Origin: Antechinus flavipes
Taxonomy: Eukaryota
Direction: 5' to 3'
Length of the DNA: 63,841 nt
NCBI RefSeq assembly: GCF_016432865.1
Contig: NC_067402.1
Location: 152,582,001-152,645,841 of the forward strand
The notes beneath the pieces are model-generated. The model was given only the letters and a program-made list of their open reading frames with translations. It made no database searches and was not told the origin of the DNA. Shown piece by piece: positions 21,168-62,205 of this stretch. Both the position numbers and the translations under genes were made by a program. Each line of letters begins with the position of its first letter. Within the stretch, counting starts at the first letter, position 1.

Positions 21168-23889
21168 TACATTGAGCACAACAGTCATACTAAAAAAATG
21201 TTAGGTCCCTTGAACATTAAAATTTACTATAAGCATCCAGCTCCATTTTAATCTGATTCTCTCCTTCAGCTAAAGTAATGCAATCCATTCTTAGAATTGA
21301 ATGTTAACTAGGTCAAAATAATGAAAAACCTTTATAAGGCATGACTTCACAATTGTTCTATTCCATTTATAGTTTGTTGGGTTTTTTTTGGGGGGATTGG
21401 GCAGATAGGGATGGAACATGGAGCAAGGTTGTTCATTCCCAAATTGTATATTTTTCTCTAAAGTATAGAGACTGTTCCTCCAAGCTACATACAACTGGTC
21501 TCATTATAGTACACTCAAATCTCATATTTGTATTCATTAGACTCAAATATAAAGCATTTAACAAGAGAAAATATAAGATGTTTATACATTACTTATATTT
21601 GTTTAATTTTATATAACTTTGGAGCTTCTTTTCTGGTTTTTGCACCAGTCTTGAGATTTCTTGGTCTTAAGCTCAGGTTCTTAACTGCATTTCATGAACC
21701 AGGTGGGGTAACATAACTGAATGTGGGGGTTGAAATATTATGAAATATATGAAAAAAATATTATGAAATATTAGTAAATGTTTGATTTGTATATCTGTCT
21801 TATTTCCTTTATACCCTGAGTCATGTAAAAATGTCTTGACCTGAAAGGGATCATGAGTAGTAAAAGTTTAAGAAGACTTTTTCTGACAGTAGAGAACTTC
21901 TGGGGCCAAAGGAGATTGTGACATCTAGACTTAGAGAGTATCTTAGGACAATAAGAATTAAGTGATTTATTTAGAGCCACAAATCCAATATATATCAGAG
22001 ACATGATGTTTCTAAAGATTGCTTTATCTTCTGTTGTCTCTCTGACTTTTCAAAGTACTTTCATAACTCTGATTTCCTTTATTCTAAAATCAGTTTTGTG
22101 GACCTCTGTTTTATAATAAAAGCAAAAATGACAAAAGGGAAAGAGAGCCGGCCTCCAGGTATAAAAAACCTACATTTAAATTTTGTCTTAGACTTAACTA
22201 TCTTTATCACCTTGGACCAATCACCCAAACTCTCAATATTCCAGGTAAATTCTTTATAAATTATGGTGTAGTTCCCTGCCTAAACTGATAGAAAAGATTT
22301 CCTTAGCAAAAATTACAAATAAAGATAAAATTACAAATTCAACTTTCTTCCCCTCCAAAAGGGAAACTGGCACATTTTTTGACTTTCGCAAGACTAGGCA
22401 AATCATTAGCAAGAGAATCCCATTTCTCTTGAACTACAATCTATTTTTCTCTCCATGGCCATCTCAATAGTATTCATTTCATCACCAGCTAAAGAAAGAA
22501 GACAGATGAGCAAGAATAGAATATCCTGTTGTGCTTTGGCTTGTAATACAGAGAAATATTACCAACTCTGGTTTCATTTGAAAATGAATGGACTTAACCA
22601 CATTCGTAAATTTAAATATTGTTATTTAAATTTTCTGTCTCTAAACGTCCATGTACACATTAGAATGATTTGGCCATTCATTTTTCAGAAATGTCCAATT
22701 TAAACATTTTGTAAAGTCCTAGTCTTTTTGTTCTCAAGACATGTTAAAATCTGTCTAAGTTTATACATGAACTTGGCAGGCTCCTGAGTCCTTTGTGGAC
22801 AATTTGTTAAGAGCAAAAACTTCTATATAATTTGAAGAGAATCTGGCTCTTTGGACATGTACTAGAACAGCAGGGCATGTTTCAGGTCAAAACTAATATA
22901 GTTTGGCAGAATTGCTTAAAAAGTTTGTGCAGCATCTGTTTGGGCTGTGCTTTGATCTGCATAGTTTTTCACTTTTATATTCACTTTCAGGAAATCTAAC
23001 CAATAAATTTAAAAAATAGTTATCTCCTATCACATCATGCAAAAGGGAATGGAACTATGGTAATTCTCAGGTTGGACACTTCATTGAGTTTAGATGCTTG
23101 AAAAAAAAATTTTTTTTCACTGACTTCCTATATTCCCCTATTTAGGATAGGAATGAAAACATGGTACTTCAACAAGTTTTCTAATGGAGTTAAATCAGCA
23201 TTGGGCAATGTTCTGACTTAAAAATTTCAGAGAAACAGGAAATTCTTCTAACAGCTGATCTATATCAAAAATGGTTAAAACTTCACGTTTGTTTGAAAGC
23301 TTGGATTCTCTTACTGGAGTAATGTAGCAAGGCAAAAGTCAATCCTGACATTAACCCCAATTTGGTTGCTTGTTTTTTTTTTTTTTAAATTAAAACTATA
23401 TTTAAATTATCATCAGAGAACAAAAAGAATTGTACCATATTTTGTGTGATATTTGACATCATAGGGTATATTTTAAAACCAATGTCCTAGTATGATTAAT
23501 TGCTTATTCTTTTTATTTCTTTAGCTACATGCTCATTCCTATCATCAGGCTAATTTTAATTTAAGAAGATTAAGTTGAATAATAGTTTGCATACTTGATG
23601 AATGACTGTGAGAGATTTAGCAATGTAACTGCCTTGTTCTTTGCCTCTGACACAGTCTGTATCTTCTTGGACTGCTTTCTTTAACAGGGAACTTAGGTCA
23701 GGCTTCAACTTGGAAAGGCATGATCCTAGATAGAGGCTTATGGGTGGAGACTAATACTATTACTGGCCCCTGTATTTTGGGATATGAACTAACTCAATAT
23801 GTAGAGAAACAGACAAATGGATTTTCATGAGAAGACATCTCCCAGGAAAAGACAAGATAAAAAACTATCTGACAGAGCAACAAAAATGC

Positions 23890-24321
23890 TCTTTTCTTTT
23901 CCTTTTCTCTTTCTTTTTCCCATCTTCTCTCCTTATCTCCTCTCACCTCTTCTTTATCTTTTATCTCTTCTTTCTCTGTTTCTTCTCTTCTGTTAATCTT
24001 TTTATGTCTCTATTTTTGTATGTCTATGTCTCTCTGCCTCTGTTTCTGTCTCTATATATCTCTATCTCTCTATATATCTCTTTTCTCTGTCCCATCTCTG
24101 TTTCTGTCCCTGTTCATTATTTCTCTCTTGTTTTCTCTCTCCCTTTCCCTTTTCTTCCTTCCCTCCTTTTTCTCTTTCTCTCTCTGCCTCCACATCTCTT
24201 TCTGTCTCTGTCTCTGTCTTTGTCTCTCTCTATCTCTGTCTATGTGTGTCTCTTACCTTTCTCTCTTTAAATGTCTCTGCCTTTCTATGTCTCTGCCTCT
24301 GTGGGTGTCTCTGTCTCTGTG

Positions 24322-57481: not shown

Positions 57482-59129
57482 CTGAAAATAAGAGTACATT
57501 TATTAAGCATTAATAGTTAGATGCCTTAGAAACAGCATATCTTGAAGTTTTTTTTTTTCTTCACTGGGGATGGATGGCTTATAAGTATTCCATTCTTGTA
57601 GGTCAACTTTATTTTTTAATAAAATGAAGTTCTGACTGTTATTATTAGCATAATTTAAAAGAATAAAACATTTCTAAGTTTGAATACTTAATTTTCTGTC
57701 TACAGAAATAAAAAAAAATTAACTGTTCTCCTAAGTAGTTTTAGTGAATATGACATTAAATATTAGATAATTTTACATCTTATGTGGAAAAAAGTTATTG
57801 GCTAATAATATAACAAGCAAATTATCAAGAGAAAAAATAATTTTCTTGTCACTATGTTTAGGTTGACTAAAAGTGAAGATTAAATTTTGAACAATGATTC
57901 AGAAGCTAAAAGGATAAGGAGAAAGGATTAAGGAATTAAGTTCAGCCAAGAATCAGAAACATAAAGATTTAAATCTAAGATTCACACATTGAAACCAAGA
58001 GAAAGCAAAGTCAAGAGCCCAGGAAATTAGATTTAATATGATTAAGAGAAAATCATTTTTCATTATAGGCCAGAACAAGATAGGATAAAAGTGGCACATA
58101 ATTGATTTAAATATTACTGCCCTTGGCACTAGTCTTCCTAACTAGTCTTGTCTCATCTATATGTACAGGATCATTTGAAGGCTTTTTTAAAGAATCACAT
58201 TAATATATATGCATTTTTCATGAAAATATTATCTATATTTTAAGTGCTTTATATTTTAACCACTTTAAAATAACTTTTTTTTTTCATAAGCAATTTTCCT
58301 TGTATTTTCTTAATGGTTGTTTAATACCCAAACACTAAATGGATTCAATTAATCAGATGTTTTATATAATCACATAGTGTTCAAGCTAAAAAGGATCTCA
58401 TTCTGACACACTAGTCCAAGAAGGAGAATAAGCTTATTTGTTTAACTGTCACTTTCAGACTTTCATTCTGCTACTATGACTTAATATCCACTCCTTTTTT
58501 GAATTTGGCTGGAAAAGTATATTACTCCTTTCAAATACTCTTCTAAGTTATCTATCTATTCCTTGAATATTCTCCATGTTTGTCATGATCTTTAATTCTT
58601 GCTTTTAATCTTCCTCTTCAATCCATTTATACTAGTGAATTTCAAAGCACATACTGATATTTTGTAAAGACTTTCAACTTCCCAATATATCAACCTCCTT
58701 AACTCTTGTGACCTATAAACATTTACTCCTTAACTACACCCAGGGCCAGTCATAACCCTGTATTAGTTTCTGACAGCTGTTCCTATTAAATTATTTTTTT
58801 AAAAATACGATGATATTCTTCTAAGAGAACTTTGTGCCAGTCTACCTTTCCCTGTCTTAGTCGTTTGAAACCTATTACTTATTCCAAGGATAACCTCCAA
58901 CCTCTCTACTCGGTTCTATTCTAAGCCCTTGTCACTGTTCATTTCACATTCTTCCCTTACAAGCCTTAACTCTATTCTAACTTTTTCAGCTTTAAATTGT
59001 TCTCTACTGTTGAATCTTGTCTGCTTGTAATTATTGTTGCTTATGACTTGCCAAATCCCAACCTTGCATTATTGCCACCATCTCTAATTCTATTCTTGAA
59101 CGGCTAAACAGTACTGGAGGAAGTCTTTC

Positions 59130-59717
59130 TGTAATGGGCTGAGGCTTGAGTTGATGCACTGAGGTCCCAAGCACATGAGGCTAAATAGTAATTGGACCAT
59201 ACTCTATTAATATATAAGCTTGGAGAAAGAATGGCCCCCGCCCACTCTTTGTGCAAGTCCTGATGTGTTGTATAGGAAATGACGATTCTGGTGGGTAGAG
59301 GCAGGGGAGTGGAAAAGGAAGGGGAAGAGAGACTGCTTGCTTTTGCCATTGCGATGACCTTTCTGTTTGTTTCTCTTCTTCTTTTTGCTTTTTGCTGAGG
59401 CAGTTGGGTTTAAGTGACTTGCCATGGCCACACAACCAGGAATTGTTAAGTGTCTGAGGCTGGATTTGAACTCAGGTCCTCCTGACTTCAGGGCTGGTGC
59501 TCTACCCACTGAACCATCTCCTCCCCTTCCTTTTCCACTCCCCTGCCTCCACCCACCAAAATCGTCATTTCCTATACAACACATCAGGACTTGCACAAAG
59601 AGTGGGCGGGGGCCATTCTTTCTCCAAGCTTATATATTAATAGAGTATGGTCCAATTACTATTTAGCCTCATGTGCTTGGGACCTCAGTGCATCAACTCA
59701 AGCCTCAGCCCATTACA
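59130..59717 (-). repeat. 3' LTR made of two 201-bp inverted arms (59130-59330, 59517-59717) and a 186-bp core
   Basis: Read directly: the arms are reverse complements with 3 mismatches, and both ends read tgtaatgggctgagg. Confidence 0.97.
59360..59516 (-). mobile_element. WSINE1-type SINE forming most of the 3' LTR core
   Basis: A box tggttcagtgg (59506-59516), B box gagttcaaatcc (59462-59473), A-rich tail. Confidence 0.9.
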
Positions 59718-59738
59718 TCTCCCGCTTTCTTTTGTTTT
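59718..59738 (-). promoter_or_regulatory. Polypurine tract (3' PPT)
   Basis: The minus strand aaaacaaaagaaagcgggaga lies immediately before TGTAATGGG, which fixes the provirus orientation. Confidence 0.85.
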
Positions 59739-59746
59739 AGAACACA

Positions 59747-59907
59747 GGTGATCATGCCATCCCTGACTTCTCAGGGAGGTGAGAGCCCCCAAGGGGAGGT
59801 GATCACACCTTCCCTGACTTCTCAGGAAAGGAGGTGAAAGCACTAAAAAGGAGATAATCACGCCCTCCCTGACATCTCAGGAAGGGAGATGAAAAGCACC
59901 AAAGGGA
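59747..59907. repeat. Three tandem copies of a 51-55-bp unit in the proviral 3'UTR
   Basis: The unit gg(t)gatcac.cc.tccctgacttctcagg...gg.ggtga.agc.c.aa.ggga repeats three times. Confidence 0.9.
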
Positions 59908-60684
59908 AGTGGGGGTTGCTCGCAGGTTTCTGGGCTCAAGGGTCTTATTATGCACAAACCCATCAGCATGGGAAGTATTACACAAGCACATAGCAACAAT
60001 GCAGAGGCTATTAGTGATGACTCTCCCCACAGTCAGTGCAGGCTTGATGTGGTGTAACAAATATGAATTACACACCCAAATAACAGTATAACAAACAATA
60101 TAAATTGACATTGTGTTGTAAAAGATTGCCAGAAGTCCTAGAAGGAGAGTATGTAAACAGCAGTCACACATACACCTTCTTCAGCAGCCAAGAGATAGTC
60201 CAAAACCAATCTATTGTCCATCGCTTCACATATCAGGGAATCCAATGATCCCCCCAAGTTTTTGAAGTCCAGCAAAAGTCTTTTTATGTCTTAGGGAATC
60301 CAATGATTCCAGCAGATTTTGAAGTCCTGTAACAGTCTTATCATTTCTCAGAAAATCCAATGATTCCTGAGGGCTTTCAAGTCTTATGTCTCAAAGAATC
60401 CAATGATTCCTGAGGGATTTAAAGTCCTACAACAATCTAATGTCTCAGAGAATCCAATGATTTCCGAGGGTTTGGAGGTCCAATGATTTTCTATGTCCAT
60501 GAGTCAAACACCATAACTGCCACACGCTTTCAATGGTGAGCACAATCAGCAACAGAACCATCCGATGTTTCTTGGGTCTTCTCCTTCGTTTCAAGGGTCT
60601 GCTCCGTCTCTCTGCGATGGACAAGGCGAATACAGCTCGTTGGCACCCATCTGATTCCTTCTCCACCTGTAGAGATACAAGCAA
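59803..60684 (-). pseudogene. env: env remnant (leader, heptad repeats, ISD, hydrophobic segment; SU absent)
   Basis: Acceptor tctctacag| at 60667/60666 inside the integrase CTD; RRSRPLKRRRRPKKHR-MVLLLIVL; MDNRLVLDYLLAAEEGVC (60168-60221); then CCLH and a hydrophobic run after a frameshift. Confidence 0.75.
60237..60490. repeat. Six degenerate tandem units (26-58 bp) with core tccaatgat
   Basis: Core at 60241, 60299, 60356, 60399, 60453 and 60479. Confidence 0.9.
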
Positions 60685-61032
60685 ACCCTCTCCCCCAAGC
60701 AGTTAGCGTATCTGGTCCCTTCCATTCACCACTTTCTAGGTCTCTCCACATCACCTGGCGATTATCTAAAGATAGCGGAGCTGCTCGCACTGGACACTGC
60801 CCTTCCAGTGGGTTATAAAACCTGTCTGCTGGAGCCAGTGCATCTTTGTCAAAAATCAAGAAGTTAATAGTATAAAGAGCTAGATTTAGAAGCTCTCTAG
60901 GGTTACCTGTGGCTCCCCCTTTCTTTTGTTTTTGGAGGAGCATCTTAATGTCTCTGTTTCTCCTCTCTACTATTGCCTATCCTTGAGGATTAAAGGGTAT
61001 GCCAGTGGTGTGTAAAATCTTATACTGTGCAC
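60530..61032 (-). pseudogene. pol: pol remnant: C-terminal half of a betaretrovirus-like integrase
   Basis: [38 protein letters not shown]...VMWRDLESGEWKGPDTLTAWGRGFACIS..WVP matches class II ERV integrase (HTTGIPYNPQGQAIVER; WKGPD..WGRG); one stop at 60977-60979. Confidence 0.93.
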
Positions 61033-61438
61033 AAAAGGAAGGGGAGGAGATGGCTCAGTGGGTAGTGCACCAGCCCTGAAGTCAGGAGGACCTGAGTTCA
61101 AATCCAGCCTCAGACATTTAACAATTCCTGGTTGTGTGACCATGGGCAAGTTACTTAAACCCAACTGCCTCAGCAAAAAGCAAAAAGAAGAAGAGAAACA
61201 AACAGAAAAGTCATCGCAATGGCAAAAGCAAGCAGTCTCTCCTCCCCTTCCTTTTCCACTCCCCTGCTTCCACCCACCAGAATCGTCATTTCCTATACAA
61301 CACATCAGGACTTGAACAAAGAGTGGGCGGAGGCCATTCTTTCTCCAAGCTTATATACTAATAGAGTATGGTCCAATTACTATTTAGCCTCATGTGCTTG
61401 GGACCTCAGTGCATCAACTCAAGCCTCAGCCCATTACA
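61033..61438 (-). repeat. 5' LTR copy: full arm (61238-61438), 187-bp core (61051-61237), 18-bp stub of the second arm (61033-61050)
   Basis: About 96-97% identical to the reverse complement of 59130-59534; the SINE reads on + here. Confidence 0.95.
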
Positions 61439-62040
61439 TCATACAACCCAGTTGATAGGGGTCATATGTAAATTTATATTACCCAATCTTAACTGGGCCT
61501 TCACCAGGAAATTTTTTCACCATTTTCAATTTGATTATCTATTGTATTCTCCAATGAAGTTATTCCAAATATTCTCTTCTCAAGCTTTCTACAACATCCC
61601 CTTCCCTCTTCCATAAGAGGACTTTCCCCCATAATTCACTGGAAAAACCTGCCATTCATCTTTATCTCTCTCTCCTTCCCTGAATTATATCTTAAAACAC
61701 CTTGACATATTCCTCCCCCCCCCCCCCCCGCCTTCCCATCCCTTTCTCCTTTATTCTAGCTTCAAAAGAAATAATAGTTCATTATCTTGCCAAGGCCAAT
61801 GATCATATCCCTTCCAATGACCTCTAGAAGACTGCCTTCACAATCATGCTTGAGTTACTGCCATCCCCTGGAATAAGAGGGCTATAATAAAGGACAGGGT
61901 ATAGGTATCAGATCAAATCTACAAAGTCATAAAAGAGAATTAAAGATAGGTAATTTAGAATATTTAATTTAATGAGAGATACAGATAATAAAGAAAGAAT
62001 ATATGCAAAAGCCATGAATCAAAGGAAGAAAGTTTATTTC

Positions 62041-62205
62041 TGGGTTTTTTTTTGTTTGTTTGTTTGTTTACTGAGGCAACTGAGGTTAAGTGACTTGCCC
62101 AGGATCACACAGCTAGAAAGAGTTAAGTGTCTGAGATCAAATTTGAACTCAGGTCCTCCTGATTTCAGGGCTGGTACTCTATCCACTGTGCCACCTAGCT
62201 GACCC
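62041..62205 (-). mobile_element. WSINE1-type SINE, full length
   Basis: Reverse head ccactgtgccacctagctgaccc, B box, T-rich tail; TSD aggaagaaagtt 62023-62034 / 62206-62217. Confidence 0.92.

Follow-up and report, generated by a model that had tools for sequence, protein, structure and literature searches.

An insert at positions 59130–61438 of a 63,841-nucleotide stretch of the Antechinus flavipes genome (NC_067402.1, positions 152,582,001 to 152,645,841; hereafter the window) has the U3 part of an ERV LTR at both ends and carries two SINE copies. Judged from sequence, it is a defective element that probably arose when a SINE-derived Pol III RNA, instead of a tRNA, primed ERV reverse transcription and was itself copied; we infer this mechanism from DNA products. 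The accepted view is that SINEs rely on LINE machinery and that retroviruses take tRNA as their host primer. If true, an ERV-priming SINE would be a new route of SINE mobilisation, and SINE-primed reverse transcription of an ERV a means of SINE multiplication not yet described. In the literature searched, with repeat databases and most subscription papers outside the search, we found no description of such priming or of these chimeras.

Structure of the window element

The segments 59130–59534 and 61033–61438 are inverted repeats that align as 294 nt at 97% identity and 113 nt at 96%, with a 1-nt indel between. Within the left segment and beyond it, the arms 59130–59330 and 59517–59717 are inverted copies of each other (201 nt, 99%), and 59517–59719 is repeated directly at 61238–61440 (98%). 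It follows from these alignments that the SINE-bearing core lies in opposite orientations relative to the directly repeated arm. An earlier note on this DNA had described oppositely oriented cores at the two ends, and had offered terminal inverted repeats of about 405 bp plus an internal arm copy (59517–59717) as one account of them; the alignments confirm both. The same note had also read the repeats as two LTRs of one provirus, one with its core flipped. They are not two LTRs: the arm is U3 only, and the normal LTR of the family usually has no SINE.

On the plus strand the element begins with arm and core and continues with arm, PPT, integrase, core and arm, these last five all inverted. The left arm (arm L, 59130–59330, plus strand) is the U3 part (nt 1 to ~201) of the ERV LTR with its integrase end outward, and is 97% identical to nt 1–204 of a natural LTR in L036, a full-length-like copy described below; the arm thus spans LTR nt 1 to ~204. 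It is followed by core L (59331–59516, plus strand), which comprises the start of R (~30 nt) and one young, antisense WSINE1-like SINE with its tail, the body resembling WSINE1 in the supplement to PMC4408412. Core L would be a copy of the primer RNA. Arm M (59517–59717, minus strand) is a U3 preceded by a polypurine tract (PPT; 59718–59737, minus strand) that adjoins position 59717. Arm M carries T at LTR nt 159, and arms L and R carry C (figure for this allele: 52/313 arms); arm M may have been copied from viral RNA after re-priming.

The 3′ internal region (59738–60529, minus strand) contains short tandem repeats and an env remnant resembling the immunosuppressive domain (60138–60290), a motif that we take to be the ISD. 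Tandem repeats with units of ~52–57 nt lie in the env remnant at 59746–59881 and 60257–60495. Pfam returned nothing useful for the window ORFs 59803–60180 (one weak hit, E 0.065), 60138–60290 and 23788–24270. Next comes a C-terminal integrase fragment (60530–61032, minus strand; ORF 60530–60976, PF00552, E 1e-14), which matches the L036 internal region. The only parts of the ERV retained in the element are the PPT and this integrase C terminus, and there is no PBS.

The right-hand copy is an incomplete LTR that ends 18 nt into its second arm, at the SINE 5′ end like most other copies, and passes into integrase through a 5-nt microhomology (AAAAG, 61033–61037, plus strand) common to integrase and the U3 arm. 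The same 5-mer is present in L036 and in 5/6 other integrase copies compared (L003, L009, L171, L265 and L173); the sixth, L185, has a local deletion. Arm R (61238–61438, minus strand), assigned by repeat alignment and nt 159, is a U3 whose integrase end, the second in the element, faces outward. Cores L and R have in common a rare allele that none of the other 130 of the 132 cores compared carries.

Read in the sense direction, both SINE copies predict a Pol III unit of 217–218 nt with an A box, a B box, a tail and, as its last part, ~60 nt that are antisense to the U3/R junction and run to the first TTTT. The left unit (217 nt) occupies 59313–59529 on the minus strand. The right unit (218 nt) occupies 61038–61255 on the plus strand, with its A box at 61051, its B box at 61096 and its first TTTT at 61252–61255, and is predicted to fold with a terminal stem (z −2.96). 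Boxes and terminators were called by general Pol III rules. The first TTTT of the predicted unit lies opposite LTR nt 184–187.

Possible TSD halves flank the element at 59124–59129 (TCTTTC) and 61439–61444 (TCATAC), both on the plus strand. They match at 4/6 positions, which is weak alone; 4/36 two-U3 copies of the family are likewise 4/6. When the two host flanks are aligned separately, both fall on a single old repeat copy at another locus (L282), the left at 1409–1652 and the right at 1680–1815, with 65–66% identity. This collinearity indicates one insertion site and bears out the previous view that the flanks fit a single insertion.

The ERV family and its LTR

A 51-nt U3 pattern has 3,848 exact matches in the genome. 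Forty regions around the first listed matches were mostly ordinary, SINE-free LTRs of 357–442 bp that end in U5 and have a 6-bp TSD; in 4/40 (L045, L046, L057 and L064) there were two inward-facing U3 ends and a TSD. The normal family LTR is ~440 bp, ends in U5, and usually has neither a SINE nor a second arm.

The family has class II ERV features: gag, RNase H and integrase between direct LTRs, with a PBS (presumably Lys-type), a PPT and a 6-bp TSD. L036, a young copy of 6.96 kb with identical LTRs, has Gag_p24, RNase_H, rve and IN_DBD_C domains and no env ORF; no RT domain was found in its three scanned ORFs. The family is a young, env-less betaretrovirus-like ERV. Tandem three-LTR elements with internal regions deleted also occur (L035 and L261).

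By description, the family resembles MEBrv 3, an env-less betaretrovirus-like ERV of Dasyuridae, in its class II features, lack of an env ORF, ISD-like remnant after pol, length of ~7 kb, LTR of ~440 bp and identical LTRs in a young copy (PMC11334065, accessible text). A search of one supplement for a sequence match to the published MEBrv 3 representative gave no hits. Unlike MEBrv 3, L036 measures 6.96 kb and shows no RT domain in the ORFs scanned, and the accessible text of PMC11334065 mentions neither SINE chimeras nor inverted ends.

Two-U3 inserts and SINE copies across the genome

A diagnostic SINE 33-mer has 308 exact genome matches. We examined 70 loci, or 69 after leaving out L095, a second SINE copy within the L094 element; one listed SINE match is the same locus as L015, and one PPT match the same as L096. 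In 36/69 the SINE lies between two inward-facing U3 ends, with TSDs matching at 6/6 positions in 24, 5/6 in 7, 4/6 in 4 and 2/6 in 1. The remaining copies comprise 18 with only the upstream arm and an antisense SINE, 6 with only the opposite arrangement and 9 without a U3 terminus. Where 4/6 TSDs are imperfect (L079, L109, L122, L128 and L011), the mismatch adjoins the element and reads GA or its complement TC; GA is the dinucleotide with which the PPT adjoins U3, and a 5′ overhang of the viral end was possibly retained in such TSDs.

The junction of arm and sense SINE has 64 exact matches, and most of the 30 annotated loci are palindromic inserts with TSDs. The window's layout of arm, core, inverted arm, inverted PPT and inverted internal region recurs at independent loci (L173, L182, L190, L267 and L270). 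The suggestion that an element with inverted termini arose during replication is supported and can be made more precise: each terminus is a U3 integrase end, and two-U3 inserts are common genome-wide. A MITE or other TIR DNA transposon was rejected, the termini being the ERV U3 end and the interiors variable.

The head of the SINE is tRNA-like, including an A box and a B box; its body resembles the WSINE1 rows in the supplement to PMC4408412, and its subfamily is young (88–98% identity). Free copies of the LINE type, with a long TSD and an A-rich tail, were clear in only 2/69 (L098 and L111, with TSDs of 15 and 13 bp), both among the nine that lack a U3 terminus, and the window copies are not of this kind. 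The 5′ end of the free copies lies 13 nt inside the U3 motif. The 5′ end is sharp: after setting aside copies that were 5′-truncated (13) or folded back (7), 42 of the 49 scorable copies stop 7–18 nt past the anchor, matching the two free copies.

At least three R types occur in the chimeras (43/26/23), and a shorter, younger SINE variant accompanies R type B. The three R types and the tie between this variant and one of them suggest recurrent events that track the helper. A single founder of all chimeras was rejected, given the three R types and the mosaics at junctions. The younger, internally deleted SINE is seen in near-perfect palindromic inserts of R type B (L192, L194, L199, L203–L206, L208, L210, L213, L217 and L218). 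The SINE is also found inside ordinary U5-bearing LTRs (L031, L017, L193 and L187), and some copies have therefore spread canonically. L187 (the same as L008/L010) is a direct-repeat element with an arm and a sense SINE in both terminal repeats. At L136 a SINE pair stands head to head, its flanks forming a long inverted duplication of host DNA.

Where 3′ LTRs end

If a SINE RNA primed the minus strand, the 3′ LTR should break opposite the TTTT, near nt 186; this prediction was set beforehand. From the 652 exact genome matches to a PPT+U3 41-mer we took 84 PPT-preceded arms in list order (71 + 12 + L096), with L225, whose U5 is divergent, counted as U5-bearing. U5 was missing from 16/84. Consistent with the prediction, 10/16 break at nt 184–189, the others breaking at 97, 146, 180, 195, 202 and 233 (p 9e-16, computed for 10/14 entered, with L096, at 146, and the inner arm, at 202, left out).

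The TSD served as a ruler in 12 truncated elements chosen for having both ends. Nine end inside the A-run, seven of them exactly after nt 186; of the other three, one ends at nt 145 and two could not be placed by TSD. The TSDs of the nine match at 6/6 positions in eight and 5/6 in one. SINE sequence stands at the 5′ end of 8/9, in one case as the start of the tail only. A-run ends combined with a 5′ SINE are to be expected if plus-strand synthesis continues from U3 into the primer, which RNase H then removes, and if the plus strand jumps onto the minus strand without a PBS. L120 and L270 carry A185G in both arms, showing nt 185 to be virus-templated. A cryptic att site at nt 186 was rejected, since the terminal sequences (GGAAA, GAAAA or GGAGA) do not resemble the end of U5.

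However, several observations run counter to SINE priming. L261 ends at 186 without a 5′ SINE, and other elements ending there have a missing or different 5′ end (L153/L262, L266, L268 and L269). Conversely, some SINE-bearing elements have a full or otherwise ended 3′ LTR: L180 (full), L181 (ending at 145), L176, L114 and L175. The exact end at 186 fits a primer ending in 0–2 U rather than the full TTTT, and implies that integrase used a non-CA end. In the window, the template argument from arms L, M and R uses two sites only, and the TSD is only 4/6.

Proposed mechanism

We take the details of tRNA-primed retroviral reverse transcription as general background. In the SINE-primed variant, an RNA of ~218 nt would be transcribed from copies with an arm and a sense SINE and be co-packaged. 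Its 3′ end would anneal to U3/R near the 3′ end of the viral RNA and prime the minus strand without a first transfer. The PPT-primed plus strand would then copy U3 followed by the entire RNA primer, yielding an arm with an antisense SINE, and RNase H would remove the primer, setting the minus-strand end at LTR nt ~186. With no PBS to match, the plus strand would jump illegitimately. Because the copied primer end is complementary to U3 nt ~191–203, the 3′ end of the plus strand could fold back, giving arm, core and inverted arm, or re-prime on viral RNA. Integrase would insert the product, and palindromic products would carry a new sense SINE gene. At the window locus, the left arm and core would have re-primed on a second viral RNA, extended through U3, PPT and integrase (1.5 kb), and then switched across 5 nt onto their own 5′ end.

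We lean towards a broader reading in which this SINE is a self-propagating primer parasite. With LTR-derived ends on the SINE, its Pol III RNA would replace the tRNA primer, be copied whole and fold back to an integrase-inserted two-U3 palindrome encoding new primer RNA. It would track the helper's R, revive a SINE lineage thought extinct here and perhaps restrain the ERV by defective interference. About one in five of the sampled PPT-preceded arms (16/84) lack U5, so the RNA may sap ERV replication. Short RNAs offer an in vitro test of the claim that the SINE is a primer.

Alternative explanations

Template switching by itself is the alternative that survives best, although we consider it unlikely. 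Reverse transcription would be tRNA-primed as usual, the plus strand would jump to a co-packaged SINE RNA used as template, and the nt-186 ends would come from another antisense primer or a boundary effect at U3/R. Retroviruses do package Pol III RNAs and patch in host RNAs by template switching, according to the accessible part of PMC4997597; in addition, R junctions vary, an occludin mRNA was captured in L012/L180, and L261 ends at 186 with no SINE. This account, however, does not predict that the right end falls at a single nucleotide facing the predicted terminator, and does so in the very elements that have a SINE copy (8/9). By the logic of reverse transcription, such a right end requires minus-strand initiation there. 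In L180 (990–2150; the same as L012, G000:C3:80557000–80561000), the captured fragment is from the 3′ part of the occludin mRNA (PF07303, E 3e-11), with an arm+SINE end on one side and a normal LTR on the other.

It is improbable that two DNA molecules each gave one U3 end to one integrase complex and that host end-joining fused their free ends. Such joining would suit the highly heterogeneous middles, and separate end oligonucleotides undergo concerted integration in vitro (PMC11054761, accessible part). The minor alleles of the arms speak mostly against it: within two-U3 elements 55 are in both arms versus 39 in one arm only, against 696 versus 4551 for random arm pairs and 43:18 for direct LTR pairs. 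The 39 one-arm alleles fit two molecules; the usual sharing does not, and neither does the allele common to the window cores, found in 2 of 132. Two-molecule joining also leaves the SINE orientation bias and the 186 ends unexplained, but it could still act after the plus strand has copied the primer in the SINE-primed model.

The earlier note had proposed a flip-flop cassette, in which an element began with two direct arm-core-arm LTRs and recombination between arms flipped one core after insertion, turning the Pol III promoter. We regard this as very improbable. Inverted arms of 201 bp could perhaps recombine at a low rate, the nt 159 pattern alone is compatible with a crossover, and the family includes SINEs of either orientation: 8 loci have a sense SINE after a PPT and 5 an antisense one. 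These loci are unrelated copies with heterogeneous middles, from a non-random set. Junctions in the family are heterogeneous, unlike fixed crossover sites. A switch would also need a second event that deleted 183 nt of one arm together with everything from PBS to RNase H, and that began at the point where most unrelated copies stop. Among the annotated loci there was no element with direct arm-core-arm LTRs at both ends; in L187 the two LTRs are oriented alike; and a scan of the three long ORFs of one full-length-like copy (L036) gave no recombinase domain. We found no sign of a regulated switch.

Local misassembly of a young palindromic repeat is scarcely credible, since the copies differ at ~13/405 positions and the layout recurs at the independent loci named above; the flanks, moreover, are collinear with one old repeat.

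Comparison with known systems

DIRS elements use a tyrosine recombinase and have no TSD. The window element is like them in its inverted termini and internal copy of a terminus, but in its family the integrase is retroviral, TSDs of 6 bp are made (6/6 in 24/36) and the internal arm is inconstant, so that the loosely DIRS-like organisation seen at first is superficial.

As in tRNA priming, the primer in SINE priming would be an RNA annealed to the viral RNA, the plus strand would take in a copy of it, and its removal would set the right end (PMC4997597, accessible part). Unlike a tRNA, the SINE RNA would bind U3/R rather than the PBS and be copied from end to end, and a further primer gene can be encoded in the product.

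In Cassandra TRIMs the 5S part supplies a promoter inside the LTRs, and the chimeras are likewise non-autonomous LTR elements with a Pol III promoter in the LTR (bioRxiv 10.1101/2023.07.14.548913, accessible part). Here, in contrast, the predicted Pol III RNA runs antisense to the helper and is likely a primer, and the ends are often inverted U3/U3. A TRIM or Cassandra identity, with short direct LTRs, PBS and PPT, was rejected: the window and 36/69 copies have inverted U3 ends, the window has no PBS, and direct forms such as L187 are few.

Under an old idea, primer-plus-strong-stop products can found SINE-like elements; SINE priming, if true, would be a living case. The inserts also provide a large collection, made by nature, of integrase events that involve U3/U3 and non-CA ends.

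WSINE1 is reported to have been inactive in Dasyuridae for ~30 My, a silence that SINE priming, if true, would revise (PMC4408412, accessible part). The chimeric SINE is like WSINE1 in its body and its A and B boxes, and unlike it in forming a young subfamily with LTR-derived 5′ and 3′ ends that is nearly always inside ERV-made inserts. An older, free WSINE1-like copy lies at 62040–62200 of the window and is ~80% identical to the chimeric SINE.
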